Shown: one piece after another, positions 2,268 through 50,449 of the stretch
Numbering within the stretch: the first letter of the stretch is position 1
Layout of the letters: the number at the start of each line of letters is the position of its first letter
Virus record (IMG/VR): IMGVR_UViG_3300040959_000769
Location: 32,001 to 96,000 of that record
DNA length: 64,000 nucleotides
Reading direction: 5' to 3' (one strand)
Source of the DNA: a virus
Program-made: the position numbers and the translations under genes
The notes under the pieces: generated by a model
Seen by the model: only the letters and a program-made list of their open reading frames with translations
The model's database searches: none
Told to the model about the DNA's origin: nothing

Positions 2268-2990
2268 ATGACAAACGAAACCCAGACCCCCGACTGCTGG
2301 AAGAACGTCGAAGACGTACTCGCTTCCGGTGTTGACCGACTCATCCTCTACGGACCCCCCGGAACCGGCAAGACATACGCCGGACTCAACTACGGTGATG
2401 TCTCCCGAGGTGCCTACCGCATCATCTGCAACGAAGACATGACCGCAGCCGACGTAACCGGATACATGAAGCCTATGGGCGAAGGTGTCTGGAAGTGGAT
2501 TGACGGTCAAGCGATCAAGGCATGGGAAGGCGACGGCTTCAACGGCGGTCGCATCGTTGCCGACGAGATTGACCGAGCCTCTGGTGACGTTCTGTCGCTG
2601 CTACTCGCCATGTTTGACTCACCCGAGTCCGCAACATGGGAACACCCTGACAGCGGTCGTATCGTGCGACCCCGAGAAGGCTTCTCAGTCGTCATGACCA
2701 CAAACGTGGAAGACATGCGAGAACTACCTACCGCTCTCCGAGATCGGTTCCCTGTCGCTCTCCGCATTGACCAGCCCCACCCCGAAGCACTCAAGGTTCT
2801 CTCACACGACCTGCGTAGTGCTGCTGCTGCAAGCGCAGATGCCGACCGAAGCCGACGGTTCTCCATCCGAGCCTTCATGGAGTTTGACAAACTGCGGAAA
2901 GGCATCGAAGCCGACCGTGCAGCCAAGATCATTTTCGGCAAGCACGCCGACGACATCATGGATGCGATCAAGGTGGAGGCTCTGGCATGA
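2268..2990 (+). CDS. MoxR/CbbQ/CobS-like AAA+ ATPase
   Basis: Walker A GPPGTGKT, Walker B IVADEIDR, VVMTTN sensor, ALRDRF arginine finger. Confidence 0.9.
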   Translation: MTNETQTPDCWKNVEDVLASGVDRLILYGPPGTGKTYAGLNYGDVSRGAYRIICNEDMTAADVTGYMKPMGEGVWKWIDGQAIKAWEGDGFNGGRIVADEIDRASGDVLSLLLAMFDSPESATWEHPDSGRIVRPREGFSVVMTTNVEDMRELPTALRDRFPVALRIDQPHPEALKVLSHDLRSAAAASADADRSRRFSIRAFMEFDKLRKGIEADRAAKIIFGKHADDIMDAIKVEALA

Positions 2991-4405
2991 CCGCCGGAGC
3001 CCCCACCAAACACGCAGCATTTCCCGAGTGGCTGACCAGACAAGACGACGATCCGACAGCATGGAGCGTTGACGAAGGAACTGGCAACCGAGGCGACGCC
3101 TGGACCAATCTCCAAGAACACAAAATGCGTGTTCCGATGGGAGACGACGAGATCAGCCGAGCGGTTCGGGCGCACGAAATGGTGCATGCCAAAGTGTCAC
3201 CCAAACAAATCTCTGCAAAATACGCCGAGTCCCTGGGGGTAACTCTTCAAGACTTGACGGTGGCGGAAGAGTTCCGAGTCAACATGCTTGCATCCGAAGC
3301 CGGATTCGACATGGACAACCTCCGAGACGGATCAGAAGTACTTTCAGGTGAGATCGCTGGAAAGAACACGAACTGGAACGGAGCGGTTCAGTCCGTTGCA
3401 GCGATGGCAGGCACAAAGGCATGCAACGACTTCATCCGAGGCGTAGGCAAACACAACAAAGAGATGGCTGACTCGCTGCGTGGTGTGCAAGCAGAACTGA
3501 AAAAGCTCTGGCGTAAAGACCTGAAAGAAGGCAACACCGTCAAGATCGGAAGCACCAAGCCCATCGAACTTGAGGCTGAGTGGGAGAAAACCGAAGTCAC
3601 CAAGGGCTTCCATCGGTACACAACGAAGTACGCCAAGTACATCCGTAGTGTTCAGATTCACGAAAGCGAAGATGGCGAACCCGACGACGAAGAGCAGAGA
3701 ATCCCGAGCAAAAGCGATGTCAAGTCGTCAAGCAAGCGTGGGGAGTTCGCTCGCCTCATTGAGTTGCGCCTACCGAAACCTAAGAAGGTTGACGGTCGCA
3801 TCGGTCGCAAGCGTGTACCCACCGACATCGGAAGAAACCCCCGGCGCATCAACCGGCTCCTCACCGACCCTGACAAGCGCATCTTTGACAAGCGAGTCAA
3901 GGGCAAAGGCGGTGTGGTGCTTATTGACCAGTCGGGCTCAATGTCGCTCAGCGACAGAGACATCTGGAACATGATCGAACATGCCCCCGGATGCGTCATC
4001 ATTGGGTACAGCCACCGACCGGGATCAAAGGACATGCCGAATGTCTGGGTTATCGCAGATCGTGGTCAAGTTGCCGAAGAAGTGCCTCGCAGCAACAGCG
4101 GTAACGGTGTGGATGGTCCTGCCATCCGTTTCGCAGCGAAAAAACTACGCACCGGAGAGCCGTTCATCTGGGTATGTGACGGAACAGTCACCGACGGAGC
4201 CTCAGACCATATTTACGCAAATCTGTACAAAGAATGCGCTGAACTGGTAATCAAACATCGCATCCACGTTGTGCCGGATGTAGACGAAGCCGTGCATGCA
4301 CTCAAAAAGGCATCGCGAGGCGAACGCCTAAACATGCGATGCGACACCCGAGATCACACGTTACGAACGGCAGTCCGCAACATCGCCAGCCAGCGAGACA
4401 TCTGA
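2987..4405 (+). CDS. vWA-domain protein with N-terminal HExxH metallopeptidase-like motif
   Basis: HEMVH motif; MIDAS DQSGSMS; ATGA overlap with the AAA+ gene. Confidence 0.85.
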   Translation: MTAGAPTKHAAFPEWLTRQDDDPTAWSVDEGTGNRGDAWTNLQEHKMRVPMGDDEISRAVRAHEMVHAKVSPKQISAKYAESLGVTLQDLTVAEEFRVNMLASEAGFDMDNLRDGSEVLSGEIAGKNTNWNGAVQSVAAMAGTKACNDFIRGVGKHNKEMADSLRGVQAELKKLWRKDLKEGNTVKIGSTKPIELEAEWEKTEVTKGFHRYTTKYAKYIRSVQIHESEDGEPDDEEQRIPSKSDVKSSSKRGEFARLIELRLPKPKKVDGRIGRKRVPTDIGRNPRRINRLLTDPDKRIFDKRVKGKGGVVLIDQSGSMSLSDRDIWNMIEHAPGCVIIGYSHRPGSKDMPNVWVIADRGQVAEEVPRSNSGNGVDGPAIRFAAKKLRTGEPFIWVCDGTVTDGASDHIYANLYKECAELVIKHRIHVVPDVDEAVHALKKASRGERLNMRCDTRDHTLRTAVRNIASQRDI

Positions 4406-4451
4406 CAAGTCTGGGGGAAGGGGACTTCCTTCCCTCCTTCCCTCAACAGAA

Positions 4452-4483
4452 GGAACCTCGAACCGCAAGGTTCGGGGTTCTTT
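4452..4483 (+). terminator. intrinsic terminator (possibly bidirectional)
   Basis: GAACCTCGAACC-GCAA-GGTTCGGGGTTC-TTT between convergent genes. Confidence 0.8.
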
Positions 4484-4488
4484 CGCGT

Positions 4489-4719
4489 TCACCCAGAGTT
4501 CTTAGTGTTTGTCCACGCAGTCTTGTCCATGATTCGCCACGCCACATAGCCAAGACCGATCCACATGCACTCCTGCCACGACAGAGAGAGCGAATCCACC
4601 CGTCGTGCCACGAACCACAGCACAGCAGCATCGAACGCTGCAACCAGGACCAAGCCGATTACTCCCAGTACGAGCAACCCGATGTTCTTTGCTGGATCGT
4701 TGTTCTCCATCTCAGACAC
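4489..4719 (-). CDS. small membrane protein
   Basis: two hydrophobic segments in 76 aa. Confidence 0.7.
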   Translation of the reverse strand: MSEMENNDPAKNIGLLVLGVIGLVLVAAFDAAVLWFVARRVDSLSLSWQECMWIGLGYVAWRIMDKTAWTNTKNSG

Positions 4720-4927
4720 TCCTATCTTCCGCAGGTGACTGAAGCAGTTTAGCCATCTGCTCCTGCCGCCAGTCCGGATGGTCGTCAGCGATAACCGCCG
4801 CAGCCAACCTGACTGTCTCTGCCATCTCTTGATACAGCAGCCGCTCGAGCTTGTCCGCCGCAGCTAATAGATTTAGAAGAGAAACTCCAGGCTCCTCAAT
4901 GGGTGATTCAGATTTATCCGTGTCCAA
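4712..4927 (-). CDS. hypothetical protein (start uncertain, TTG at 4927 assumed)
   Basis: 3' part of ORF 4712-5101 has protein-like composition; overlaps the next gene's start. Confidence 0.5.
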   Translation of the reverse strand: MDTDKSESPIEEPGVSLLNLLAAADKLERLLYQEMAETVRLAAAVIADDHPDWRQEQMAKLLQSPAEDRSV

Positions 4928-4966
4928 GGTCAGTAGCCCCGTTCTTTCTTTTTCTCTGCGGGACTT

Positions 4967-5119
4967 CCGAGCTTCTACTTCGTACGGTGGTGGAAGAGCT
5001 CGGGTTGGCCCTTTGGTTTGGGTGCCCCCGCCGAGCGAAAGGAGGAAACTCTCGACGGGGGCGGAACCCTGTTGCCGAGTCCGCAACGGTCCGACCCGCA
5101 CGGCGCAACAAACCCGAGC
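4967..5119 (-). ncRNA. candidate structured RNA / leader
   Basis: 12-bp stem 5024-5035/5051-5062 (G-U pair only on minus strand), 9-bp long-range pair 4998-5006/5111-5119, alternative pair 4967-4973/4997-5003. Confidence 0.4.
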
Positions 5120-5181
5120 GTACTACATCGGTGTCATTTGTCGGGGTGAATCATTTTCAGAAAGATTTTTCCGATTAGGGG

Positions 5182-5232
5182 TTGACATCGCCTGTCACAT
5201 CATTAGAATAAATCACACCTACTAAAGAAAGG
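5182..5232 (+). promoter_or_regulatory. early-type promoter with conserved leader
   Basis: TTGACA-N16-TAGAAT-AAAT-CACACCTACTAAAGAAAGG. Confidence 0.8.
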
Positions 5233-5241
5233 GGCACCCAA

Positions 5242-5613
5242 ATGGGAGCACGAGCCACTATCAGAATCATCCATCCCACTAGCGACACACCCATCCACCT
5301 CTACACGCATTGGCGTGGCGACGACATTCTTGAGATCCTCGCCGAGGGAATCAGTCGAGCAGATATGGCGGGCAGACTCAGTGACTACTCGTATGCGACT
5401 CGCATCATCTTTGACACACTCACGATGTGTGATGGTGGCGAGACAGGGTTCGGTATCTGTATCGGTGACGAGGGTGAGCCTGGTGACCTGAACTACGACA
5501 CCCCCACGTTGGCGTGGCTACCTAGTGGAACCGTTGAGGTCTACTACAACTCTCTAGTGGTGGATGCCACAGACTTTGTGGAGATGGTCAAGAAATCCTT
5601 GACAGACGCATAA
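5242..5613 (+). CDS. hypothetical phage protein (LYxHW motif family)
   Basis: MGxRxxI...LYTHWRG pattern common in phage early genes; RBS present. Confidence 0.85.
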   Translation: MGARATIRIIHPTSDTPIHLYTHWRGDDILEILAEGISRADMAGRLSDYSYATRIIFDTLTMCDGGETGFGICIGDEGEPGDLNYDTPTLAWLPSGTVEVYYNSLVVDATDFVEMVKKSLTDA

Positions 5614-5650
5614 CGTCACCACTAAGATGAATCTCACCTACTACAGAAAG
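5599..5650 (+). promoter_or_regulatory. early-type promoter with conserved leader
   Basis: TTGACA-N18-TAAGAT-GAAT-CTCACCTACTACAGAAAG. Confidence 0.8.
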
Positions 5651-5658
5651 AACATCTG

Positions 5659-5856
5659 ATGACAACCCTCATTGACGTTGACATTGACAACTGGGAAGGA
5701 ACCTTCCCTGCACGACATGACCTCGTTATCCATGAACGGGGAGAAAACCCCGAAGACGGAATGGTTCTGTACGGCTTTGACGAAATCGGTTTGTTTGACC
5801 ACGAGTTCAGCAAGCCCGCCTACTCATTCGTACCCGACACATTGGAGGACAACTGA
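5659..5856 (+). CDS. hypothetical protein
   Basis: ORF directly below promoter/leader. Confidence 0.75.
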   Translation: MTTLIDVDIDNWEGTFPARHDLVIHERGENPEDGMVLYGFDEIGLFDHEFSKPAYSFVPDTLEDN

Positions 5857-5857
5857 C

Positions 5858-6100
5858 ATGGAAATAACCCAAACCGAGCAAGACCAGTTTCATTTGTTCA
5901 GCGACCACGACGAGACGATGAACATTGACGTCAATCTTCATCTCGATGATGGCGCTGATGGCAACGTCAATGTCGTTCTTTATCAGAAGGTGAAGAGCGG
6001 TGACGACTACGGGTTCATATCGGACGACGGGGATGTGATCGGGGTTATCCGTGTTCCGTATTCACTTATCAAGCAAACCATCAACAAGGAGTACAACTGA
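5858..6100 (+). CDS. hypothetical protein
   Basis: GGAGG RBS, ATG immediately after the previous stop. Confidence 0.75.
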   Translation: MEITQTEQDQFHLFSDHDETMNIDVNLHLDDGADGNVNVVLYQKVKSGDDYGFISDDGDVIGVIRVPYSLIKQTINKEYN

Positions 6101-6101
6101 C

Positions 6102-6482
6102 ATGGGAGCAGACTTCATTCTCGCAATCGTCGAGAAACCTCAGGAAGAAGATAAGGAGTTGTGGCGAACTCGTATCGCCGCACTCACCGTGACCGACATG
6201 GAGCAACTTGATGCCGACTGCTGTCCTCTTGTTCCGACTGAGTTTGACCTCAGCGAAACCGACAAACCTGAGGCGCTCATACGAGAGTTCGCCGATGACC
6301 TCGTTGACACAATCTACGAACTGTCATGGACCCATCCCGGACGAGAAGCCACTTGGCTAAATCTGGGAGATGAGTCCTACATCGCTTCGGGTGGAATGTC
6401 GTGGGGAGACTCGCCGACCGACACCTACGACTACATCATTGCATGGGATGTGGTCACCGAACTTCTCATAGACAGACCTTGA
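6102..6482 (+). CDS. hypothetical protein
   Basis: AAGGAG RBS, ATG 6102. Confidence 0.8.
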   Translation: MGADFILAIVEKPQEEDKELWRTRIAALTVTDMEQLDADCCPLVPTEFDLSETDKPEALIREFADDLVDTIYELSWTHPGREATWLNLGDESYIASGGMSWGDSPTDTYDYIIAWDVVTELLIDRP

Positions 6483-6489
6483 CAAAGAC

Positions 6490-6545
6490 TTGACAGACGT
6501 AAACCAATCCACTAGATTTATTCACACCTACTACAGAAAGGGGGC
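6490..6545 (+). promoter_or_regulatory. early-type promoter with conserved leader
   Basis: TTGACA-N17-TAGATT-TATT-CACACCTACTACAGAAAGGGG. Confidence 0.85.
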
Positions 6546-6549
6546 AGAG

Positions 6550-6819
6550 ATGCCCACTACCAAGACAACCAACCAAATGAAGAAAGAGTGGGGCGAGCGA
6601 GCAAGCAAGCACCTGAAGGGGAAGGTCATCGCCGAAGTGCGATACCTCACCGAAGAAGAAGCCAAGAGCCTGCTCTGGTTCCACTCCACACTCGCCATCT
6701 TCTTCACCGACGGCTCATACATCTTCCCGAGCCGAGATGACGAAGGCAACGACGCTGGAGCGTTGTTCACCTCATTTGAGGACTTGGACACCATCCCCGT
6801 CATTCAGGAAGGGTGGTGA
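6550..6819 (+). CDS. hypothetical phage protein
   Basis: ORF below promoter; ...SRDDEGNDAGALFT motif seen in phage hypothetical proteins. Confidence 0.8.
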   Translation: MPTTKTTNQMKKEWGERASKHLKGKVIAEVRYLTEEEAKSLLWFHSTLAIFFTDGSYIFPSRDDEGNDAGALFTSFEDLDTIPVIQEGW

Positions 6820-6824
6820 GCGAC

Positions 6825-7154
6825 ATGGCTGAGTACGCCACCATCGAAATCGGGAACGCCACCTACATCATGGACGAAAAGAGAGCCATGCGGATGTTCC
6901 ATGAGTTCTGTCACCACTTTGGATGGGTTGGCACGTTCATCACAGAACACGATGTGCGAGAGTCAATCCAGTCTCGGCGAGAAGCCGACGACTTGGAACC
7001 CTTCACCGAAGAGGAGCTCAGCGAGGCTACTCGCAAGGTGACGAGCACGAAGTCGTACCAAGACAATGTTGTCGCATGGATGCAAGAAGAAGGCTGGGAA
7101 ATCATTCACAGCATCATCCACGACGAAGTTGAGTCCGCTCTCTCTACGAGTTGA
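6825..7154 (+). CDS. hypothetical protein
   Basis: ORF track; operon-like spacing. Confidence 0.75.
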   Translation: MAEYATIEIGNATYIMDEKRAMRMFHEFCHHFGWVGTFITEHDVRESIQSRREADDLEPFTEEELSEATRKVTSTKSYQDNVVAWMQEEGWEIIHSIIHDEVESALSTS

Positions 7155-9398: not shown

Positions 9399-9905
9399 GT
9401 GACCACAGAATTCGAAACTTGGGACTCCGCAGCCGCTCACTTCGTCGGAACAATCTACGACCAGGTCCGATCAAAACCGAAAGTTTCAATACCCGACCTC
9501 CGGAAAGAACTCGACACTTTCATTTCGTCCCTGTGGTCATCCCCCGGTGGGAACTCGGCAGCGACGGCACGATGGTCCAATCTTGGCGCGAATGCTTTCG
9601 AGCTATCCGAAAAAACGTCTCAACCCTTGACGGTGGCGGAAGTGACTGAAACTTTGTGGCGCAAACAACACGACTACGGTCCAGAGAACGTCGCCCGGTT
9701 CGGACGGCAAGGACTGATGGTTCGCATGCACGACAAAGTTGCCCGCCTAGAAAACCTGATCGAAAACGACCGTATGCCCGCAGTCGCAGGCGAAGCAGAA
9801 CGCGACACCCTGATGGACATCGTCGGATACTCCGCCATCGGCATGATGTGGGAAAGCCACACATTCCTTCTGCCTCTTGAATGGCGTCCCCGGAAAGCAT
9901 CCTGA
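9399..9905 (+). CDS. nucleotide modification associated domain 1 (DUF1599/Nmad1-like) protein
   Basis: KQHDYG...GLMVRMHDKVARLENL...DTLMDIVGYSAI pattern. Confidence 0.75.
   Translation: MTTEFETWDSAAAHFVGTIYDQVRSKPKVSIPDLRKELDTFISSLWSSPGGNSAATARWSNLGANAFELSEKTSQPLTVAEVTETLWRKQHDYGPENVARFGRQGLMVRMHDKVARLENLIENDRMPAVAGEAERDTLMDIVGYSAIGMMWESHTFLLPLEWRPRKAS
9619..9645 (+). repeat. 27-bp dispersed repeat copy 3 (intragenic)
   Basis: CTCAACCCTTGACGGTGGCGGAAGTGA. Confidence 0.9.
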
Positions 9906-10453: not shown

Positions 10454-10831
10454 ATGTCTTGGGAAGAAGTTCAGTTGTTCGAAACACACGATTCGGTACC
10501 AGAACCACAAAACGACTTTAAAACGCCTCAGAGCGTCCCTGAGGGGGTAATCAGCTCGATTTGGGATCACTATGTGACCACGATGTGGGTGAAAGGTCGT
10601 AAACCGGTGTTCACCCCCGAACGAGAAGCCCTCATTCGACGCTCCGTTTCCCGACACGGAATCGCAGACGTCAAAGCAGCGATCTCAGGCTGCGCCAACA
10701 GCGACTGGCACATGGGCAGCAACCCTCAAGGCAAAAAATACAACTCCATTGAACTCATCCTGCGTAACGCACAAAAAATAGAGTTCTTTCTGGAGTACGC
10801 CACAGACAGCACCGACGGAGATCCGTTCTGA
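10454..10831 (+). CDS. phage replication initiator / replisome organiser-like protein
   Basis: TPEREALIR...DVKAAI...SDWHMG.N...KYNSIELILRN...IEFF resembles initiator C-terminal domains; coupled to a loader-like gene. Confidence 0.6.
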   Translation: MSWEEVQLFETHDSVPEPQNDFKTPQSVPEGVISSIWDHYVTTMWVKGRKPVFTPEREALIRRSVSRHGIADVKAAISGCANSDWHMGSNPQGKKYNSIELILRNAQKIEFFLEYATDSTDGDPF

Positions 10832-11310
10832 TGAACAAACACGAAACAGTAGAAGTTGTGGAACGAGTGTACGCCTCCTGGAACCAGCAACTCCCCTCAG
10901 TCAAAGCAAAGTGGGACACCGTAATGAACGCATGGCACCAGATCCTCGCAAATCTAAACAAACAGGATGTGGATAACACTGTGAACAAACTCATCCTCGA
11001 AGACAACAACTACATGCCCAGACCCGGCACCATCTACAAACAAACAATACGCACCACCCACAACTACAACCCACCCACACCCGCCGAAGCCTGGGACCAA
11101 CTCCGACAAGCAGCACAAGCAGCCCACAACGGAACCCACACCAACATCACCATCCACCCCACAGTCCGCAAAACCATCGACCAACTCGGCGGAACCAACG
11201 CCTACCAACTACACACAAACGGCGACAGAGAACTCTTCACCACCCACTACACCCGCAACATCCAAAACGAAGAAAACGAACTCTTCAACCAACAACCGTT
11301 GACACAATAA
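10831..11310 (+). CDS. replicative helicase loader/inhibitor-like (G39P-like) protein
   Basis: MNKHETVEVV...Y...AWHQIL...VDNTV...YMPRPGTI pattern; position after initiator. Confidence 0.55.
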   Translation: MNKHETVEVVERVYASWNQQLPSVKAKWDTVMNAWHQILANLNKQDVDNTVNKLILEDNNYMPRPGTIYKQTIRTTHNYNPPTPAEAWDQLRQAAQAAHNGTHTNITIHPTVRKTIDQLGGTNAYQLHTNGDRELFTTHYTRNIQNEENELFNQQPLTQ

Positions 11311-11324
11311 GTAAACTACCCCAC

Positions 11325-11492
11325 ATGCGCGGACGACCCCCCAAACAAGCAACCGGACCAACCACCCTCACCCTCAAACTCCAACCCCACATCAAAAACC
11401 ACATCACCCAACAAGCACAAGCCTACGACCTCACAATCACCGACTACATACTCACACTCGTCAACCGAGATGCCGAAATCCCCAAACCCTAA
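11325..11492 (+). CDS. small RHH-like DNA-binding protein (55 aa, not in ORF track)
   Basis: hand translation MRGRPPKQATGPTTLTLKLQPHIKNHITQQAQAYDLTITDYILTLVNRDAEIPKP; TAAACT -10 box 7 nt upstream. Confidence 0.6.
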   Translation: MRGRPPKQATGPTTLTLKLQPHIKNHITQQAQAYDLTITDYILTLVNRDAEIPKP

Positions 11493-11823
11493 CCTCAACC
11501 CCGACAACAACTACAACCTGAACGTCCGCATACCAGGCTGGATGAAACTCGAAATCATTGAGCTTTGCGAGAAAAACGGATGGTCAATACAGCAGTGGGC
11601 TTCTGTCCGTTTGTTGGTGGCGTTGCGTGAGGGGCAGGGTGTGCCTCCTGCGCCGAGGGGTTTGGTGCCTTTGCCGACTACTGCGGATCAGATTCGTGCG
11701 TATGCTCAGGGGGAGCGTTTGTTGGGTCCTTGTGGTGGGGTGTGGCCGTGTGGGTTTGTTGAGTCTGATGTGACTGTTGTGTCGGGTGTGGAGTTTTGTG
11801 GTTCGTGTGGGGTGCGTGTGTAG
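11470..11823 (+). CDS. RHH-like protein with C-terminal Cys motifs
   Basis: LNVRIPGWMKLEIIELCEKNGWSIQQW beta-alpha-alpha pattern; CxxC at C-terminus. Confidence 0.7.
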   Translation: MPKSPNPNLNPDNNYNLNVRIPGWMKLEIIELCEKNGWSIQQWASVRLLVALREGQGVPPAPRGLVPLPTTADQIRAYAQGERLLGPCGGVWPCGFVESDVTVVSGVEFCGSCGVRV

Positions 11824-12183
11824 TTATTGGTTGTCGTTCCACATTTGGGCGAGTGTGGGTCGTGTGGCTTTGATGCCGAGTTCTTTTTGTTTGGCTGCTA
11901 GTTGTCTGCTGGTCATGCCTGCCCATACTCCGTGCATGTCTGCTGGGGGGAATTCGAGTGCGTAGTTGAGGCATTGTTTTTTGACTGGGCAGTTGGAGCA
12001 TATTTGTCTGGCTTGTGTGATGTAGGTGATGTCTTTGTGGTGTTGGGGGAACATGAGGTGGGTTAAGCCTTTGCAGTTGGCTTTGTTTGTCCAGTGTTGT
12101 GGGTTGGGGTTGGGTGTTGTTTGTTTGTCTGTGTGTTTGGGTTTGTCGGGGGTTTTGGTTTTGAGTTTTTTGATTGGGTTCAT
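11824..12183 (-). CDS. whiB: WhiB-family Fe-S transcriptional regulator
   Basis: four conserved Cys (ANCKG...ICSNCPVKKQC) and GVWAG turn; start M65 of ORF 11824-12375. Confidence 0.9.
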   Translation of the reverse strand: MNPIKKLKTKTPDKPKHTDKQTTPNPNPQHWTNKANCKGLTHLMFPQHHKDITYITQARQICSNCPVKKQCLNYALEFPPADMHGVWAGMTSRQLAAKQKELGIKATRPTLAQMWNDNQ

Positions 12184-12563
12184 TTGGTGTTGTTTGGGGG
12201 GTTTAGGTGGGTGATTTTGGTGATGCATCCGTTTGGTATGAGGATTCCTCCTCCGATGTGTTGTGTGTTGATTGTGGATGCGAGGGTGTGGTGTGTGGGT
12301 GTTTTGTGGATTAGGTAGCCGATTGAGATTGTGGGTTCTGGGGTGGTTTGTTGGGTTTGTTGGGGGGTTTCCCATTCGTTGCCTACGGTGATGGCGTCTT
12401 CCCAGGTGATGGCGACTATGGGGGGTGTTTTGGTTTGGGGTTGGTCGGTGTTGATTCCGTATTTTTGGGCTTGTTTGTCGCCTATGTGTGTTCTGATGAT
12501 TTGGTCTGGTTTGATGGGGGTGTTGTTGTTTGTTTTGGGGGGTTTGTTTGTTCTGGCTGTCAT
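12180..12563 (-). CDS. conserved phage hypothetical protein
   Basis: VAITWEDA...W...SIGYLI...TLAST...IPNGCI pattern. Confidence 0.75.
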   Translation of the reverse strand: MTARTNKPPKTNNNTPIKPDQIIRTHIGDKQAQKYGINTDQPQTKTPPIVAITWEDAITVGNEWETPQQTQQTTPEPTISIGYLIHKTPTHHTLASTINTQHIGGGILIPNGCITKITHLNPPNNTK

Positions 12564-12626
12564 GGTGTTTCCCCCTGTAGGGTTTGTTGTGTCTCTATAG
12601 GTGTGTTTGGACACTTTGGGTTTTGT

Positions 12627-12773
12627 TTACGTGGATTTGTTTGATGCGGGCTTTTGGTTCTGTTGGTGTTGTTTGCCTTGTTCGATGGCTTCTTTGACGG
12701 TGAGTTCGGGGTGGTGTGTGTCGATGAGCCAGATGAGTGCGTGTAGGAGTTGTAGTTGGATGTGTTCAGACAT
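12627..12773 (-). CDS. small hypothetical protein (48 aa, not in ORF track)
   Basis: hand translation MSEHIQLQLLHALIWLIDTHHPELTVKEAIEQG...; fills the gap in the operon. Confidence 0.45.
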   Translation of the reverse strand: MSEHIQLQLLHALIWLIDTHHPELTVKEAIEQGKQHQQNQKPASNKST

Positions 12774-13236
12774 TTAGTGCTTCGATTTGTCCGTAGTGTT
12801 CTGGGCAGATGTAGCGGACGATGCCTCTGATGAAGATTCCGACGTCGTTGTTGAGGGCGGGGTCGATGTCTTCTGCCATGTACATGGTTTCGATGAGTAC
12901 TCGGTCGATGCTGGTGCCTGCGTCTAGCCATTCGCAGAGGCTGAGTCCGAGGTTGAGGAGGTTTTCGTCGGTGTAGCTGTAGTACCAGTAGGGGGTGTTG
13001 TTTTTGGTGTAGTCAAGGAATGTGTCGGGTTGGTAGCCGTTCATGGCTGGTTCTTGTGGTTCGGGTGGGAGTGTTGGGCGTGTTTCTGGTGGTGCGAGTT
13101 GTGTTGTTGTGGTGGGGGTTGCGGTTGTTGTGGGTGTTTGTGTTGTTGGGGTTGGTTCTGCTTCGACGTATACGATTTCTTTGCCGCATGCGGTGAGTGT
13201 GAGTGCTGCGAGGGTGGTTGCGATGATGGTTTTCAT
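12766..13236 (-). CDS. lipoprotein, DUF732-like
   Basis: signal peptide with lipobox LTAC, Pro/Thr linker, DENLLNLGLSLCEWLDAG...YICP domain. Confidence 0.75.
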   Translation of the reverse strand: MKTIIATTLAALTLTACGKEIVYVEAEPTPTTQTPTTTATPTTTTQLAPPETRPTLPPEPQEPAMNGYQPDTFLDYTKNNTPYWYYSYTDENLLNLGLSLCEWLDAGTSIDRVLIETMYMAEDIDPALNNDVGIFIRGIVRYICPEHYGQIEALNV

Positions 13237-14021
13237 GGGGTGTTGCTTTCTGTGGGGAGTGTTGCGATTTGTGTGTTCCGGATGTATGTGTTGAGGAAGG
13301 TTTGGGCGAAGTGGATTTGGTCGTGTAGTCCGCCGTGTTGGTTGTCGTAACTGTTGTTCCACCATTGTTGTTGGTGTTTGTTTTGGGGTGTGTGTCCGCA
13401 TTGTGTGCTGATTGGGGTGTATCCGGGGTATTGGAGTTTGGTGAGTGTGTTGTGTGTGGGTTTCCACCAAGTGCTGTGTGTGAATTTGATGTTGTTGTGT
13501 TGTGTGTGGTGGTGGAGGTTGTCGAGTGCGGTGAGGTTGGTGTGTGTGGCTAGGGCTGTGTTGATTGGGATGGTTTTGCCGTTGTGTGCGGTGATGCGGG
13601 CTTTTTTGCCTCCCCAGTCGGTGTAGTCGTTGCTTTTGTGTTGCCAGTTGAGTTGGTGGTCGTTGTTCGGGTTGAGGTTTTGGTTGGATTTAAATCGGAT
13701 GCGGCGTAGGTCTGGGGTGAGGAGGTATACCTGTGTGGGGTTGCCGTATTCGGTGACGAACCGTATGTAGTTGCTCCATAGCCAGTTGAGTCCGACTCCT
13801 GTTGCTGAGATGACTGCAATGTTTTGCTGCGTGAGGTGTTCAATGATGTTTGGCCATATGTATCCGGATGGCAGGATTTGGGTTGATGTGAAGGAGCAGC
13901 CGAGTGCTATCGCATCATGGTTGTGATGTATGAATGCCGATTTGAAGCCGTCATGGATGGTTTCGTCGTCGTGGTCGGTTTCGTCAAACCCGTTGTTGTA
14001 CTGGGGTGAATACTGTTCCAT
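13233..14021 (-). CDS. hypothetical protein, SGNH-like N-terminal motif
   Basis: ALGCSFT...WPNII motif; C-terminal HGGLHDQIH. Confidence 0.6.
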   Translation of the reverse strand: MEQYSPQYNNGFDETDHDDETIHDGFKSAFIHHNHDAIALGCSFTSTQILPSGYIWPNIIEHLTQQNIAVISATGVGLNWLWSNYIRFVTEYGNPTQVYLLTPDLRRIRFKSNQNLNPNNDHQLNWQHKSNDYTDWGGKKARITAHNGKTIPINTALATHTNLTALDNLHHHTQHNNIKFTHSTWWKPTHNTLTKLQYPGYTPISTQCGHTPQNKHQQQWWNNSYDNQHGGLHDQIHFAQTFLNTYIRNTQIATLPTESNTP

Positions 14022-14030
14022 CGTTTAGAT

Positions 14031-15257
14031 TTACAGAAGAGTGAGATCTGTCCATCCGTCGGCGTCTACCACCATGGTGAGCGTCCCTGCTCTTGTTGAA
14101 ACCCCATAGGAGTCTTGGAAGTATTCGCCTACTGGAACAATTGATGGCGCGACGATGACGGTACGCCCTTGCTGCTCTTTGATGTTCAAGTGATGGAAGT
14201 GCCCTGTCACCAAGATGTTGGCATCAGCAACGCCTTCATGGGCTCTACCCATTGCCTGCTTTTCCCACCAGTTCCAAATCGCTTGACCGGCGTTACCTGT
14301 TGGTTTTGCCAGGTGTCCGTGTGTGAACGCGATGATTTGCCCGTGCAGGTTGATCGATACCGACAGTTTCTCTAACGGCAACCGGAACCCAACATGACCA
14401 AATGCGTCTGGATTTACCTGAAACACTTCTGCGATCTGCTCAAAGATCGCCACATCGTCATTATCCCCCGTAGTGGTAAACGCTTTACCGTTCAAACCCC
14501 TGTTCTCACCGTGGTTTCCACCTACGGCGGTGACTGTCATCTGGTTGCAGTGTGGAGCCGTGGAAACAATGATGTCTCTGATTGCGCGCCGCACAAGCTT
14601 TACCTGCTCACGACGGTCAAGTTCAATGCGGTATTGCTGCGCTGGATAATGCCCGCAGGTGCCTTCCACCAGGTCTCCGAGACCGGCGATCAACACGTGA
14701 TCAATCTTGCGTCCTGCGCGTCGAAGATCGGCAAGTCGTTGAGGGATGCTTTCGGGCAGTTCAGCAATCTTTTGTATTTGCTTTTCTACTCCACCCCCGT
14801 CTCTGTTGCCTGTTTGCCAGTCTGACAGAGCAACGACAAAAGTTGAGTCCCCTCCAGAAGCCTTTTTTGCCCCTCTTTTGACCTTCCTGACGGACTGATA
14901 TAACCCGGCTAAATCGGGCTGATTTTCGGACTTGAGTCGTATCTCCGCACGGTACGAATAACAGATGGTGCTATACGTCTCCCCGGACTCGTCTTTCTTC
15001 CATCCGTCAAACGATGTCCACTTGATGGAATCCCCAATGATTTCGTACTTTTCGGGGTCTAAACCACGTTCTCTAAGGAGGTCCGACCAGTCGTTTGGTG
15101 CGGTTTCAAGGCTTCCAGTGGTGATGGAGCCGCGTCCGGTGGATCCATCGTAGGTAACTCCAGGTTCCCATCCGGCTGGTGCCTTCTTGGCACGTATATC
15201 ATCCTCGTGTGCGGCTTGTCCTTCAACCGCTGCAAGACGTTTTGAAAGTTCACTCAT
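14031..15257 (-). CDS. calcineurin-like metallophosphoesterase
   Basis: SDWQ, GDLVEG, GNHGE, HGH, GHFH motifs. Confidence 0.85.
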   Translation of the reverse strand: MSELSKRLAAVEGQAAHEDDIRAKKAPAGWEPGVTYDGSTGRGSITTGSLETAPNDWSDLLRERGLDPEKYEIIGDSIKWTSFDGWKKDESGETYSTICYSYRAEIRLKSENQPDLAGLYQSVRKVKRGAKKASGGDSTFVVALSDWQTGNRDGGGVEKQIQKIAELPESIPQRLADLRRAGRKIDHVLIAGLGDLVEGTCGHYPAQQYRIELDRREQVKLVRRAIRDIIVSTAPHCNQMTVTAVGGNHGENRGLNGKAFTTTGDNDDVAIFEQIAEVFQVNPDAFGHVGFRLPLEKLSVSINLHGQIIAFTHGHLAKPTGNAGQAIWNWWEKQAMGRAHEGVADANILVTGHFHHLNIKEQQGRTVIVAPSIVPVGEYFQDSYGVSTRAGTLTMVVDADGWTDLTLL

Positions 15258-16564: not shown

Positions 16565-17335
16565 CTAGTTTCTCTCTGTACCGCCAAACATCAAAAAACT
16601 TTCCTCAGGTAAAAACATTTTACCTATCTCAAAATACGCATCAAGTGTGTATTTCGTAGCGTAGTGACCAACGAAAACGTAGCGTTCGCCGCTAATCACT
16701 GGCTTTATGCCATGTTTGTACATTTCTGACGATGGCCAGCCGTACACCTCGCCTGCTTCTTGATCAATAACTAACGTCGGGTTGCTGTCAGGGGCTCCGT
16801 TAGCACAAAAGTAAATCTCGCCACCGTCAAAATCTTCGTTCAGTAGCAGCGAGCAACTTGAATCAAGAAGGAAAAGCGGGAAGGGTCGATTTCTAAAGAA
16901 GCCCCCAATATTTTCTAGTTGGTCGTTACTGAACCAACGTGAAACGATAGGTTGATCTGAATGTTGATTCATAAACGAACCAACTGGGTACTTTTTGATT
17001 GAGAACGACAAGCAGTGCATTTGATGTCCCCTGCTTTCCGTCATGAACTTTTCAGTTGGCTCAACTAGCTCATCCAGAATGAATTTCGCTGATGGATCGT
17101 CAACACCTAAGCCAGCCAGATGTGCCATAGGATCCCCAACTCGCAAACCGGATATGGGAAGCCAAGGCGACAAAACACTCATATTGAGTGTTCCACATTT
17201 CTGGTCAAAGGTGCGGTGGAGGGGAGAACTCTCACCAAGATCAGCGTTTTCAAATAGTTCAATAGCGTTTAGACACGTATCTTCAGATATGAGATTTTTT
17301 CTGGAAGCGAGTAAAGGAAATTCAGAACCGCTCAT
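16565..17335 (-). CDS. Fe(II)/2-oxoglutarate oxygenase (P4H-like)
   Basis: HSD...LNEDFDGGEI...HGIKPVISGERY facial triad and Arg. Confidence 0.85.
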   Translation of the reverse strand: MSGSEFPLLASRKNLISEDTCLNAIELFENADLGESSPLHRTFDQKCGTLNMSVLSPWLPISGLRVGDPMAHLAGLGVDDPSAKFILDELVEPTEKFMTESRGHQMHCLSFSIKKYPVGSFMNQHSDQPIVSRWFSNDQLENIGGFFRNRPFPLFLLDSSCSLLLNEDFDGGEIYFCANGAPDSNPTLVIDQEAGEVYGWPSSEMYKHGIKPVISGERYVFVGHYATKYTLDAYFEIGKMFLPEESFLMFGGTERN

Positions 17336-21623: not shown

Positions 21624-23678
21624 TTATTTCCTCCCCCCTCGGGATGAAGATTTTGATTTGCTCACACCTCCAGCGGAACCACCGCCAGAAGTAGGGATAA
21701 CGACGGCAATTGTTGTTACCGCAGTGATGACGCGACGTGTTCCCACGTCAACTAGAGAGTCCTGAGGCACATAGTCGTCAAATCCGCCTTCGAAGATGTT
21801 GACTTCTTCCTCAAATGTCTCTTTGATCTCTTTAGATTCATCTGAAAGCTCTTTGGCGATAGCTTGTTTCACGCCGTCGTCAAGCGTTTCAAAGTTTTCA
21901 GATTGAACGATCTCGGTGATTTCTTCAACAGAGACTTCGCCGTCCAGAACGTGGGCTACGTCTTCGGCGAGTTCTTGATCTTCAATCTTTGAAATCAGGA
22001 GAACTTCGTCAGGCTCAACGTTCTTCAGATCCTCAATATCCAGAACCCCTTCTTCTGGTTCTGTCTGAATTACAACGTCATCAGGTAGCAGAGCCAGGTT
22101 TTCTGGAACGGTAGTAGGCGTCGGCGCTACGGTGGTCGTCGGGCTCGTCGTTGCAGGCAGGACAGTTGAGGTGGTCGTAGACGACGACGTCGTTGTCGGT
22201 GGCAACGATGTAGTGGTGGTTGTAGTTGGAGCGGTAGTGGTAGGTGCGACTGTCGTTGTTGTTGGCGGCGCTGTTGATGTGGTGGTTGTCGTGGAAGTGC
22301 TCGTAGTTGGGGGAACCGTAGTCGTCGAAGTAGTTGTTGATGGCGGCACCTCCGTTGTAGTCGTCGTTGTAGACGTTGTGGTGGGTATGGTTGTTGTAGA
22401 TGTTGTGGAAGTCGTTGTTGTTGGCGGCAGCGTTGTCGTTGTTGTCGTCGTTGATGTTGTGGTGGTTGTTGTCGTTGTCGTTGTGGTTGTTGTGGTTGTC
22501 GTTGGTGGCGGTGGTGCTGAAACCTCAATTTCCATCGTTTCACCGATGTGGCAGTCCCCTTCAGAACCACACGCCAGAATATTAAAATATTTAACACCAC
22601 TACCAATATCTTCGTATGCAACTGTGTAAGAAGTTTGAGAAAAAGTCCCAGTGCTGGAGATAGCACCTTCGTCTTCTAGTTCCCACATGTTCCCGGTGTC
22701 GTTCCAAGCGATTTGGTAATGAGATGGATCCACAAATCCGTCGGAAGAAGCGTCCCAACTAAACGTCAGATCCCCGGTCGCTCTGTCCACCACGTACGTT
22801 TGGTTGTCAACAACGTCGGGCATGTTCATGATTGTCGTTGACTGGACAGGCGTCCAGGAGGAGTACCTGGCTTCCGTGTCATTATCTGATCTGATAGCTA
22901 CGTTAAATAGCCCGTGAGCCTCGTTGAAAAGAGTTTCTATATATGAGGCGTCAAATGTGTATGCGGTGTTCAATGCGTTTTCGTCACCGACATTTCCCGT
23001 CGCCACTCCGTATGGACCGGCGTTGCCGTCATCGTTGAGACCAAATCCGATTGCGTATCGTTCAGGATCGAGTGTGCCACTGGTTGGTGCATCCCAGTCG
23101 GCGGTAACGGTTCCGTTGAAGTAGTCAACGGTCAGGGTGAGGTTTGTTGGTGCTCCGATTGTTTGCGGAACAGTTGTGGTCGTCGTCGTGGTCGTCGTGG
23201 TCGGTGTTCCACCAGTCAACTGAACATCTGTAATGACAAGTTCATAATCACTTGTCCCCCACTCGGGCGTGTTCCCAAGCCCTAACTGCTCAGGGTAATA
23301 TCCTGCGCGTAGGCGGTAGTCGCCAGCGTCCAGCGTCGTGTAAATCTTCGACGACACGCACTGGTCTTGATCGTTGAAGTTGCCGTCGTCGTCGTATGCG
23401 ATCAGTGTGTCTTTGTCGTCATACAACCATAGGTGTGGGTCAACTGTTGCCTCTTCGCACGACTGGTTACTGTTGCCGTAGATGACGACATCAGTGCCGT
23501 CCTGCTCAACTTCAAAGTACCAGTCGGATTCCTCGGTGACCGTGTAGGACGAGGCGTTGGCGGTAGGGGTGCCAGAAATAAACGCCAATATTGCTACAGG
23601 CGCAAATATTCCCCAAATCCCACGACGCCTATTACGAGACAAAAGCCCACCTCCACATAAATAATAGCAGGGAGTCAA
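21624..23678 (-). CDS. large surface protein: signal peptide, PPC-like and FN3-like domains, poly-Thr linker, C-terminal TM
   Basis: DPHLWLYD...DDDG (PPC-like), APTNLT...WDAP (FN3-like), long Thr run; start codon uncertain. Confidence 0.75.
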   Translation of the reverse strand: MTPCYYLCGGGLLSRNRRRGIWGIFAPVAILAFISGTPTANASSYTVTEESDWYFEVEQDGTDVVIYGNSNQSCEEATVDPHLWLYDDKDTLIAYDDDGNFNDQDQCVSSKIYTTLDAGDYRLRAGYYPEQLGLGNTPEWGTSDYELVITDVQLTGGTPTTTTTTTTTTVPQTIGAPTNLTLTVDYFNGTVTADWDAPTSGTLDPERYAIGFGLNDDGNAGPYGVATGNVGDENALNTAYTFDASYIETLFNEAHGLFNVAIRSDNDTEARYSSWTPVQSTTIMNMPDVVDNQTYVVDRATGDLTFSWDASSDGFVDPSHYQIAWNDTGNMWELEDEGAISSTGTFSQTSYTVAYEDIGSGVKYFNILACGSEGDCHIGETMEIEVSAPPPPTTTTTTTTTTTTTTTTSTTTTTTTLPPTTTTSTTSTTTIPTTTSTTTTTTEVPPSTTTSTTTVPPTTSTSTTTTTSTAPPTTTTVAPTTTAPTTTTTTSLPPTTTSSSTTTSTVLPATTSPTTTVAPTPTTVPENLALLPDDVVIQTEPEEGVLDIEDLKNVEPDEVLLISKIEDQELAEDVAHVLDGEVSVEEITEIVQSENFETLDDGVKQAIAKELSDESKEIKETFEEEVNIFEGGFDDYVPQDSLVDVGTRRVITAVTTIAVVIPTSGGGSAGGVSKSKSSSRGGRK

Positions 23679-48475: not shown

Positions 48476-48565
48476 CAATGATTCAGGTCAAAGAAGTTAA
48501 CCTCATCAACCTCAACGCCTACTGGAGCGTCTACCACGCCCGCCCTACTCTTGAAATTGACTGAC

Positions 48566-49066
48566 ATGAACCATGATATTGTCACTGACGTGAACCGTCG
48601 TGAGATCAAATGGCTTCAAGTATTGCCTGAGATTGCGGCGACGTTCTCGACTTGCGCTAAAAGGCAATATGGTGCGGTGATCCTGAACGAAGAAGGCAGG
48701 GTTCTTGGATTCGGTTACAACGGTTCCCCACCCGGAATGAAGCATTGCAATGAAGGGCACTGCCCCCGACTTCATGAACAGTCACCGAATGGAGCGGTCT
48801 ACGACAACTGCATTGCTCAACATGCGGAAGCGAACGCATTACTGTGGAGTGACCCTGCTCAAAGAAAAGACGCGACACTGATCGTGAATGGTCCCCCCTG
48901 TTTCGGATGCGCAAAGCAAATTGCGTCAAGTGGGATAAAAAGGGTGGTCTGCTTTTCGGACGACAGTTATGAGGACTGGTTTACCGTTAGGCAATTTTTA
49001 CTTTCCGCAGGCATAAAAGTAATTGAAGTAAATAAAGAAGTGGTATTGAACAATGGAAAAAATTGA
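48566..49066 (+). CDS. dCMP/cytidine deaminase family protein
   Basis: GYNG, HAEANA, PPCFGC zinc motifs. Confidence 0.9.
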   Translation: MNHDIVTDVNRREIKWLQVLPEIAATFSTCAKRQYGAVILNEEGRVLGFGYNGSPPGMKHCNEGHCPRLHEQSPNGAVYDNCIAQHAEANALLWSDPAQRKDATLIVNGPPCFGCAKQIASSGIKRVVCFSDDSYEDWFTVRQFLLSAGIKVIEVNKEVVLNNGKN

Positions 49067-49847
49067 CAAGTCTCTAAAAAACCTTTTGGTCAACCTTGAT
49101 GACCTGGTTCCACTTGATGGCAATCCACGTAAAGGCAACGTAGACGCCATCATGGCTTCCTACGAACAGTTCGGACAGGTCAAGCCCGTTGTCGTTCGTC
49201 CCAATGACGACTCCACATACACCGTCATTGCTGGAAACCATCAAGTCGAAGCAGCACGACGCTTAGGATGGAGCAAAATCGCAGCAGTACAAATGAAAGT
49301 TGATGAATCAACTGCTGTCGCATTCGCTCTTGCCGACAACCGCACCACAGAGATGGGTCATACGGATCCTGAACTTCTGAACGAACTGTTGAGCGAAGTT
49401 GTTTCTGATTTCTCCGACTTGTGGGACGGTTTGGGTTGGGACGAATTTGAACTAGCGGCTCTTGACGAACAGGCGGCACGTCTGACAGCAATTTCTGAAG
49501 AGGAATCTGGCTACATCGCTCCTGTCATCATTAATCCCGAACTTGAGGAACCAGAACGCGACAAGCAAGCAAACCTCACCCCAACTGTTGACAATAGTTC
49601 TGGGGAGAGTAGACTTGTCCCATCTGGGGAAGTTGACCAGAAAGAAGCAGTAGTAAGCGGCAGCACTGCAATTGGGCAATCAGGCTCAAGCAAAGCAGTC
49701 GTTCAATACACGCTTGTTTTTGATGACCCAGATCAACAAAGAAAATGGTACTCGTTTATTAGATGGCTGAGGATGGATCCAGGTTATGACGGATCCACAA
49801 CGGCTGAAAGGCTCATGAGCTTCATTGATGCTCACTCAAACTTTTAA
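49053..49847 (+). CDS. ParB N-terminal domain protein
   Basis: NPRKG...FGQVKPVVV...VIAGNHQ...ADNRT. Confidence 0.85.
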   Translation: MEKIDKSLKNLLVNLDDLVPLDGNPRKGNVDAIMASYEQFGQVKPVVVRPNDDSTYTVIAGNHQVEAARRLGWSKIAAVQMKVDESTAVAFALADNRTTEMGHTDPELLNELLSEVVSDFSDLWDGLGWDEFELAALDEQAARLTAISEEESGYIAPVIINPELEEPERDKQANLTPTVDNSSGESRLVPSGEVDQKEAVVSGSTAIGQSGSSKAVVQYTLVFDDPDQQRKWYSFIRWLRMDPGYDGSTTAERLMSFIDAHSNF

Positions 49848-49849
49848 CT

Positions 49850-50449
49850 ATGGCTAACACAAGACCCAAATCACCACATGGAACTCACAGCAGATACTCA
49901 GGTGGTTGTAGATGCGACGAATGTAGAGAAGGTCACCGGATCTACATTCGTGAACGTAAGCGGAAAATCAGCAGAGCGAAGCAAGGAACCGGACCTCCCG
50001 TAGAACCTCGTTTAATTTCAGCGGAAGGTTCCCGTAGACACATCAACTACCTGAGAGAACATGGAATTGGGTATCGAGCAATTGAACAAAAGATGGGTTT
50101 CTCTCGGGCGAACCTATCGAAGATCGCAAACGGACAACAGAAAAAAGTTCTCCCCAGCACGGAGCAAAAACTTCTAGCGATCACAGCCGACTCGTACTCC
50201 AAGGATCACACTGTTCCTTCTGACTACGCCAAAGAAGTTGCCCAGGAAATATTTGACGCCGGTTACACACTCAGGCAGATAAACGAAATTCTCGGCAACA
50301 AAATGCCACACCAAAAACTGGTAAACGGAAAACGAATCCGCCTCAAGCAAGAACGTAAGATTGAGGCGCTCCACTTCTATTTGCTCCGTAGGCCAATCAA
50401 AGCAGAGAAGCCGAAGGGTTCACGCAGGAAGGGATACTACGCAATATGA
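49850..50449 (+). CDS. GCRCxxC plus HTH DNA-binding protein
   Basis: HGTHSRYSGGCRCDEC; HTH-like IGYRAIEQKMGFSRANLSKI. Confidence 0.7.
   Translation: MANTRPKSPHGTHSRYSGGCRCDECREGHRIYIRERKRKISRAKQGTGPPVEPRLISAEGSRRHINYLREHGIGYRAIEQKMGFSRANLSKIANGQQKKVLPSTEQKLLAITADSYSKDHTVPSDYAKEVAQEIFDAGYTLRQINEILGNKMPHQKLVNGKRIRLKQERKIEALHFYLLRRPIKAEKPKGSRRKGYYAI

Follow-up and report, generated by a model that had tools for sequence, protein, structure and literature searches.

The composition island and its genes

The DNA analysed here (hereafter the window) is a stretch of 64,000 nucleotides, bases 32,001-96,000 of the 137,166-bp virus record IMGVR_UViG_3300040959_000769, for which a completeness of 92% is estimated. 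Beside genes for replication-initiator-like and helicase-loader-like proteins, the window was found to possess two adjoining tracts of extreme and opposite strand composition (the island), which change over at a sharp switch inside a small open reading frame (ORF) of 117 codons, ORF117. Coordinates are window positions unless marked as genome positions, and L-numbers denote fetched loci of relatives. Tract limits were obtained with a three-state composition hidden Markov model (HMM) and skew profiles with a 200-nt sliding window.

The left arm of the island extends from 10,984 to 11,518 (535 bp) with a plus strand of 80% A+C and a G+T-rich minus strand. It is followed by a switch zone of mixed composition of 77 nt (11,518-11,595) and by a right arm at 11,595-13,755 (2,161 bp), which has a plus strand of 78% G+T and fades between 13,650 and 14,100. 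From 11,000 to 11,500 the GC skew is -0.54 to -0.64 and the AT skew +0.54 to +0.70, and from 11,600 to 13,700 these values are +0.42 to +0.73 and -0.45 to -0.78, respectively. The 500-nt keto skew (G+T-A-C) ranges from -0.59 to +0.66 in this and a second island described below, compared with -0.065 +/- 0.09 outside. The extreme inversion from C/A to G/T on the plus strand, noticed earlier in a reading of the letters without database searches (the sequence-only reading), is therefore real; the right end given there agrees with the HMM limit, but the left tract begins approximately 150 nt later than the 10,830 proposed. GC and TA skews are correlated in the islands (r = 0.96, as opposed to 0.16 elsewhere) with mean absolute values of 0.43 and 0.52, respectively, in 150-nt windows. 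GC content at the switch is 0.50-0.58.

At four-fold degenerate sites between 11,700 and 13,650 the plus strand has 92-100% G/T in each 150-nt bin (approximately 7 A or C among approximately 330 sites), compared with 0-14% G/T in the left arm. In the eight island genes other than ORF117, 86-98% of the third positions on the sense strand are A/C. Codon positions 1 and 2 are also shifted (60-76%), which enriches the island proteins in Thr, Asn, Gln, His, Pro, and Lys. The skew fades over the last ~400 nt of each arm, the arms otherwise forming a saturated plateau, and the tract edges are located within genes. Further HMM hits at genome positions 21,017, 54,189, and 118,071 were rejected, as they reflect low amino-acid complexity (Ala/Lys repeats, a poly-Thr linker) with mixed third positions. 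The hit at genome 54,189 corresponds to an apparent G+T island at 22,189-22,519 of the window, which is a poly-threonine/proline linker in a 684-aa protein on the minus strand.

The predicted initiator-like protein (125 aa, 10454..10831, plus strand) matches phrog_16167 'replication initiation protein' (E=1.3e-9) and the O-like phrog_18020 (E=2e-4), in both cases with the C-terminal part of the family profile only, and its gene is of normal composition (third-position A+C share 0.65). The loader-like protein (159 aa, 10831..11310, plus strand) matches phrog_9804 (E=5.9e-13) and phrog_2289 'helicase loader' (E=1.9e-6) and belongs to a family with 104 representatives; the left tract starts inside its gene, at approximately codon 50. 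Both assignments derive solely from remote PHROG profiles, which agree with the initiator- and loader-like neighbors named in the sequence-only reading. Next on the plus strand is a 55-aa ribbon-helix-helix (RHH)-like protein (11325..11492) with a weak TacA1 match (E=0.003), 96% of whose codons end in A/C and which is kept in L002, L003, and L021. ORF117 itself (11470..11823, plus strand) encodes a protein with an RHH-like N-terminus and a four-cysteine C-terminus, the switch occurring at approximately codon 41.

The remaining island genes are on the minus strand. Convergent with ORF117 is a gene for a WhiB-like transcription factor (11824..12183; PF02467, E=9.5e-15; phrog_472, E=2.6e-18) with a third-position A+C share of 0.93. 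It is followed by genes for a 127-aa protein with no assigned function (12180..12563; 98% of codons ending in A/C; 89% identity in L002 and 82% in L003), a small 48-aa protein (12627..12773; 81% identity in L002) and a probable lipoprotein (12766..13236). The latter has a weak DUF732 match (PF05305, E=0.0015, below the curated cut-off), and a signal peptide and lipobox-like LTAC were recognized on reading its translation. A 262-aa protein with no assigned function (p262, 13233..14021) has homologues P0001 (90%) and P0002 (47%); its first ~90 codons are less biased and the right arm fades within its gene. To the right of the island, normal composition resumes with the gene for an MRE11/SbcD-like exonuclease (14031..15257, minus strand; phrog_284, E=2.7e-60; third-position A+C share 0.55).

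As a stop codon requires A as well as T, all six frames are open in the skewed tracts. This affects annotation: the automatic calls in the tracts of L002, L003, L017, and L019 were found to be on the wrong strand or over-extended, for example with 183 aa for a WhiB gene of 119 aa.

Continuity and recurrence of the pattern

A chimeric junction at the switch, a concern raised with the original observation, was not detected on examining assembly continuity there, as four runs, each from a different study, gave Logan contigs of 12.5-26 kb that cross it unbroken. The same pattern recurs in independent ENA, JGI, NCBI, and Logan assemblies of diverged relatives, and a 4-kb stretch around the switch is present (at least half of the sampled words) in 13 public runs. 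These results, together with tract edges inside conserved genes, leave practically no room for chimeric assembly, sequencing artefacts or recent insertion of foreign DNA as the source of the island. At 10,530-10,900 of the window, the end of the initiator-like gene and left island edge, the assembly fragments into short alternative unitigs with several variants in 4/4 runs; this region is a hot spot of strain diversity or recombination.

ORF117 was found to be a real, conserved gene, as judged from its translated homologues. These are 117 aa long in L002 (95% identity), L003 (75%), and L021 (47%) and 113 aa in L019 (38%); homologues of 113-117 residues occur in five other assemblies, with the RHH-like N-terminus and four-cysteine C-terminus kept. 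The frame is intact in all of them and not split into two unrelated pieces. Where close relatives differ, the changes are for the most part G<->T at third positions and synonymous in this frame.

Seven further syntenic loci were fetched (L018-L024), for which identities to the window loader are given. The syntenic order is initiator, loader, small RHH protein, ORF117-like protein and convergent WhiB gene, onward to the exonuclease, and initiator/loader synteny is kept in all fetched relatives. The same switch from A+C to G+T was found in L019/L020 (loader 36%), L021 (49%), L022 (44%), and L024 (32%) and also, between the initiator/loader and convergent WhiB modules, in L002 and L003; L018 (35%) is a short contig ending within the A+C arm. 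Right-arm genes differ between lineages while the place of the switch is constant. For the window, L002, L003, and L021 this place is within ORF117 or its homologue, and for L019 and L024 it is the end of the homologue, the convergent junction. Its exact point shifts by ~35 nt among close relatives and by up to ~260 nt among lineages. For the less saturated L019, L021, and L024 the skew peaks at the switch and weakens over the next 1-2 kb outward. The locus L023 (loader 35%; 2900-7100) has the same replication, WhiB and exonuclease order with no skew (sense third-position A+C 0.37-0.54), so that gene order and convergent transcription are each insufficient. It thereby provides a natural control for the cause of the skew.

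The second island, of the same kind and 26 kb from the first, lies beyond the window limits at genome 14,704-18,196 (L006:14704-18196). Its G+T tract (genome 14,704-15,129) is followed by a tRNA-Lys and by an A+C tract (genome 15,392-17,969) carrying a 2OG-Fe(II) oxygenase, an unassigned gene, a C5 DNA methyltransferase and a small gene. After a sharp switch at genome 17,969/17,970 there is a non-coding G+T-rich stretch of 227 nt with short direct repeats, which ends at a sigma-70-like consensus promoter (TTGACA-17-TAAGAT). Relatives keep this layout even without the oxygenase and methyltransferase, and in three lineages the second-island switch adjoins a repeat-rich non-coding stretch. Self-BLAST of the 137-kb genome gave no copy of either island, and the two share only composition-driven matches of up to 17 nt. 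Comparison of the two switches for an element in common, and of the arms for inverted repeats, likewise returned composition-driven matches only. Folding of the switch regions was no better than that of shuffles, and no Rfam matches were obtained over 9-16 kb.

A motif, AAATCTAAAC, is associated with tract starts. It occurs four times in the window (1628, 10950 (+), 14032, and 42321 (-)) against 0.14 expected, a number reached by 0/100 shuffles, and with close variants also at genome 15301, 17763, 17919, 28576, and 31459, being ~30-fold over-represented. Two inverted copies bracket the island, each pointing into it from the 5' end of the A+C-rich strand. One (10950..10959, plus strand) is at the start of the left tract, where the A+C share rises from ~0.55 upstream to 0.78 downstream. 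The other (14023..14032, minus strand), which is kept in L002, L003, and L004, is between the exonuclease stop codon and the p262 start. Each of the three long A+C tracts, that of the second island included, has the motif or a variant at its 5' start, and copies often span a stop codon and intergenic spacer. Four copies in the genome are without a tract, and in L019 and L021 the arms are not delimited by the motif. It could be a promoter, a priming site or a nick site.

The remainder of the genome shows a far weaker bias. The third-position A+C share is ~0.6-0.68 in plus-strand genes and 0.25-0.45 in most minus-strand genes. Across most of 3-13 kb and 57-137 kb of the genome, third positions of the plus strand are weakly A+C-rich (~0.55-0.75) for genes of either direction. 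The earlier impression that the plus strand is C/A-rich elsewhere regardless of gene direction accordingly holds, but only weakly. Such a genome-wide bias would fit copying of the genome in one direction.

The window virus is an uncultured estuarine phage; most runs carrying the 4-kb stretch are labelled estuary metagenome, and the listed runs span 18 studies. Its gene content (WhiB regulator, DUF732-like lipoprotein, MRE11-like exonuclease) points to a phage of actinobacteria. The nearest cultured relatives of the exonuclease are in Streptomyces, Mycobacterium, and Cutibacterium phages, at no more than 33% identity. Among the cultured phages searched, no DNA match to the window and no protein matches for the loader or ORF117 were found, nor were there matches with the exonuclease and ORF117 as queries against viral and metagenome contigs. 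Streptomyces phage Gilgamesh was rejected as a relative, as it is not syntenic and is without the island. The ends of the record (genome 1-298 and 136,869-137,166) overlap by 298 bp at 96.6% identity; the 137-kb record is probably complete, either circularly closing or terminally redundant, and assembled from mixed strains. A set of nucleotide- or DNA-modification genes is situated at 9,399-9,905, 16,565-17,335, and 48,551-51,615 of the window. The set includes a DUF1599 'nucleotide modification associated domain 1' protein, a second 2OG-Fe(II) oxygenase, a dCMP-deaminase-like protein, a ParB_N protein and a PAPS-reductase-domain protein, which with the oxygenase and methyltransferase of the second island suggest that the DNA of the phage is hypermodified. 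The sole deaminase-fold protein of the phage was considered as a possible DNA deaminase and rejected; nothing marks it as such, and it is dCMP-deaminase-like and located beside nucleotide-modification genes.

Polarity, gene direction and sequence change

Codons 1-40 of ORF117 end in A/C in 29 cases and in G/T in 11, while 76 of the 77 later codons end in G/T (Fisher p = 2.5e-17), exactly as had been counted by hand. The effect reaches the protein level. Around the same cysteines, the C-terminus consists of Gly/Val/Trp/Phe/Ser on one side of the switch and of Lys/Thr/Asn/Gln/His on the other.

For 12 of the ~14 island genes the sense strand is the A+C-rich strand, and this made a transcription- or message-level cause the main rival to a process acting on the DNA. 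On such an account the dominant sense strand turns A+C-rich, through selection for G/U-poor unstructured RNA or through a template-strand bias of unknown kind, and the switch is the end of two convergent units. The position of the switch suits it, being at, or no more than 270 nt from, a convergent gene junction in every lineage. The tract-start motif also holds a -10-like AAATCT so placed that p262 might be translated from a leaderless message. However, three conserved genes are coded in the opposite composition. Besides the ORF117 tail, these are a minus-strand phosphatase-like gene in the left arm of L021 (DSPc, E=1.8e-6, with an HCxxGxxRS catalytic motif and 90% G/T-ending codons) and a plus-strand gene of L011 and L017, ~92% G/T-ending and directly upstream of the tRNA-Lys and of plus-strand genes that are ~90% A/C-ending. 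The constant relation of bias to sense strand that characterizes transcription-associated asymmetry is thus absent. Known transcription-associated mutation enriches G+T on the sense strand, which is the opposite polarity, and a promoter scan gave no sigma-70-like site inside the island. The convergent architecture is moreover present in L023 without skew. A transcription-linked process is consequently regarded as very improbable. The polarity of the skew follows position and is set neither by coding sense nor by gene direction; in the sequence-only reading, too, transcription direction had been held unable to explain it.

How the tracts change was examined by comparing the window with L002 (~90% identical). 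Substitutions in the island are almost exclusively A<->C or G<->T, so that the class of each site is kept, and the transitions that predominate in the flanks nearly vanish. At four-fold sites total divergence is 0.139 in the island and 0.258 in the near flanks; the corresponding values are 0.013 and 0.109 for transitions, 0.003 and 0.061 for cross-class transversions, and 0.123 and 0.088 for within-class transversions (p = 0.13). An initial estimate of a 4-5-fold rise in within-class transversions in the arms was dropped, as all four-fold sites together give 1.4-fold with this same p value. Among recent polarized changes 62/75 were G<->T within class, class-changing events being too few to orient.

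An alternative to a mutation bias is selection on base composition itself. Strands consisting of A+C or G+T only exclude palindromes, hairpins, -10/-35 promoter hexamers and stop codons, and single strands stay unfolded, from which origin unwinding, R-loop control, or escape from restriction enzymes or from enzymes attacking G/T in single-stranded DNA (ssDNA) might benefit. In its favor, saturation is as complete as the genetic code allows, synonymous sites exceed non-coding DNA in bias, and protein divergence was found not to be raised in the island. The within-class rate in the island is also what unchanged mutation with strong filtering predicts. However, a mutation-bias model predicts 0.088-0.149 for this rate, so that the four-fold figures fit strong mutation bias and strong selection alike and do not decide between them. 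A need for a certain composition leaves the fixed polarity, the switch and the decay with distance unexplained, and the syntenic L023 does without skew. To our knowledge no function needs kilobases of A+C-only/G+T-only DNA, and selection as the cause is considered quite unlikely.

Candidate processes at the switch

On each side of the switch, the strand running 5'->3' outward has lost nearly every A and C dispensable for protein function, and the proteins have been dragged along. The evidence supports the view that the tract records a strong, place-bound and strand-specific bias acting on the DNA itself and not on genes or messages. The polarity reported in the sequence-only reading, in which the G+T-rich strand leads outward 5'->3' from the switch in both directions, was recovered here and also in six related lineages. 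Origins in bacteria and skew jumps in mammals share this polarity.

It is tentatively proposed, at somewhat less than even chances, that recurrent local initiation of DNA synthesis at the switch, beside the initiator and loader genes, is the cause. Two strands would start at the switch and run outward, each displacing the parental strand of the same polarity, and the displaced strand would stay single-stranded for long before being copied back. This asymmetry would resemble that of vertebrate mitochondrial DNA, on a scale of 0.6 + 2.2 kb. The G+T excess would then build up through C->T and A->G changes in the exposed strand, and the loss of A and C may in turn lengthen the exposure, as a strand of this kind is unable to fold and priming sites may be missing from it. 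That ssDNA exposure with deamination is the cause, that C->T and A->G are the generating changes and that the switch is an origin is what we infer from the pattern. The outward decay of the skew in L019, L021, and L024 and at the arm ends of the window is expected if exposure time falls from the start point. Two features typical of origins are present, namely the polarity of the skew switch and the adjacent initiator and helicase-loader genes. The repeat-rich non-coding stretch that adjoins the second-island switch also speaks for a start of this kind.

Comparison with known replication systems gives a mixed picture. The displaced mitochondrial strand undergoes the pair of base changes, C->T and A->G, that is proposed for the phage (PMC1794132). 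The likeness to vertebrate mitochondria extends to a G+T-rich displaced strand, A/C-ending codons in most genes and a protein composition that is dragged along (PMC1794132, PMC2779903). Decay with distance, known from mitochondria as well, has a partial counterpart in the outward decay described above, beside the saturated plateau of the window and the less biased patch of the second island. By contrast, the effect in the phage is confined to ~3 kb of a 137-kb genome and occurs at more than one site, the weak genome-wide skew keeps its sign at the switch, and no origin elements were found there. We know of no replication skew that approaches the saturation of the phage island. In the lambda-type module the origin is within or beside the initiator gene. 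As with lambda (initiator O, loader P), the initiator-like and loader-like genes of the phage are directly upstream of the candidate site and transcribed toward it; unlike lambda, this site is separated from the initiator gene by ~0.7 kb on the downstream side, falls within a different gene and is without iterons or an AT-rich stretch.

Several further observations weigh against a replication start at the switch. Iterons, tandem repeats and an AT-rich unwinding element were sought at 10.5-14.3 kb and only composition-driven repeats were detected. The background third-position skew does not differ in sign between the left and the right of the island, so that the switch is only a local extremum, not a genome-wide turn of polarity or the place from which bidirectional copying of the whole genome starts. 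Of the skew pattern expected when an origin was first suggested, the local extremum is therefore present; a genome-wide cumulative extremum with a change in background sign is not. Non-coding stretches of the islands are biased to only ~70-74%, the methyltransferase gene has a central patch of lower bias whose sequence is almost the same in two lineages, and L023 keeps the gene order without the skew. There are at least two islands in the genome and, in addition, a third G+T tract without a partner arm. By a rough estimate from published deamination rates, ~98-100% saturation of A and C needs a bias of ~50-100 to 1, which is beyond what minutes of exposure per round would give, above all for adenine. 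All arm genes would also be transcribed head-on to the forks.

The closest precedent in base composition is provided by GRINS, regions of intense and positively correlated GC and TA skews in actinobacterial genes (Nivina 2021, PNAS, PMC8256042). The sign of the skews changes abruptly inside single genes, the bias peaks at third codon positions and the encoded proteins are functional, with shifted amino-acid use (PMC8256042). They are defined by a length above 500 bp, mean absolute GC and TA skews above 0.15 and more than 80% DNA identity to another copy; they have been linked to gene conversion, with the mechanism unknown, and single-copy skewed regions are mentioned in passing (PMC8256042). 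They are commonest in actinobacteria and have been reported in phage and in replication, recombination and repair genes (PMC8256042). The same skews also occur in polyketide synthase genes that are not origins (PMC8256042), a further point against a replication start as the cause of the phage island.

The island resembles GRINS in its length and skews (535 and 2,161 bp, both GC and TA values exceeding the threshold), in the correlation of the two skews, in a sign change within 77 nt, in the stronger bias at third positions than at positions 1 and 2, in its conserved genes and in an amino-acid shift between Gly/Val/Cys/Trp and Pro/Thr/His/Gln that is common to both. It differs in that the phage tracts are single-copy by self-BLAST, for which reason the repeat part of the definition does not apply, in that they are much more intense than 0.15, and in forming one ordered pair of arms around a switch, constantly placed beside replication genes whose proteins are 32-49% identical.

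This likeness is the strength of another explanation, in which the tracts are of GRINS type and arise from a recombination- or repair-linked process unrelated to an origin, the switch being the meeting of two oppositely directed tracts. The GRINS description matches feature by feature, down to phage and replication, recombination and repair genes as carriers (PMC8256042). Repeated repair synthesis or gene conversion in fixed tracts, by a polymerase with uncorrected errors along the keto/amino axis, would be the mechanism, with host NucS/EndoMS as a possible filter. The NucS/EndoMS mismatch endonuclease acts on G/T, G/G, and T/T mismatches and is not known to act on A/C, and NucS and asymmetric replication errors in actinobacteria appear as subjects of the literature. 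The start of three long tracts at AAATCTAAAC on the A+C-rich strand is what a site-specific nick or priming site would give, and the splitting of the assembly graphs of four runs into strain variants at 10,530-10,900 would also suit recombination. However, no second island copy exists in the genome, so that no gene-conversion partner is seen, and the motif is inconstant, with tracts lacking it and copies lacking tracts as described above. A start at AAATCTAAAC predicts a peak there, whereas the skew is weakest at the motif and sharpest at the switch. Neither is a fixed place beside replication genes across lineages predicted. A repair- or recombination-linked process is held to be unlikely, though less so than selection on composition.

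A more specific form of the proposal combines elements of both. Programmed, long-lived ssDNA bubbles resembling the mitochondrial D-loop may form at fixed sites beside replication genes and undergo keto/amino hypermutation, possibly shaped by the restriction of actinobacterial and archaeal NucS to mismatches of G and T, in the same process that produces GRINS in Streptomyces. This is put forward as a speculation with a rather low chance of being correct. If true, the phage locus would be the first case in which the start, direction and extent of the process that makes GRINS can be read from sequence.

At this locus the GRINS signature takes its simplest form, with a single copy in a small genome and two arms that meet at one point. 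The extent to which a bias at the DNA level can rewrite proteins is also evident, since one and the same cysteine scaffold is rich in Gly/Val/Trp on one side of the switch and in Lys/Thr/Asn on the other. The phage ties a GRINS-type signature to a replication module across deep divergence, with one syntenic relative that is without it. As the process is thereby given a place, a direction and a natural control, the cause of the skew becomes testable.

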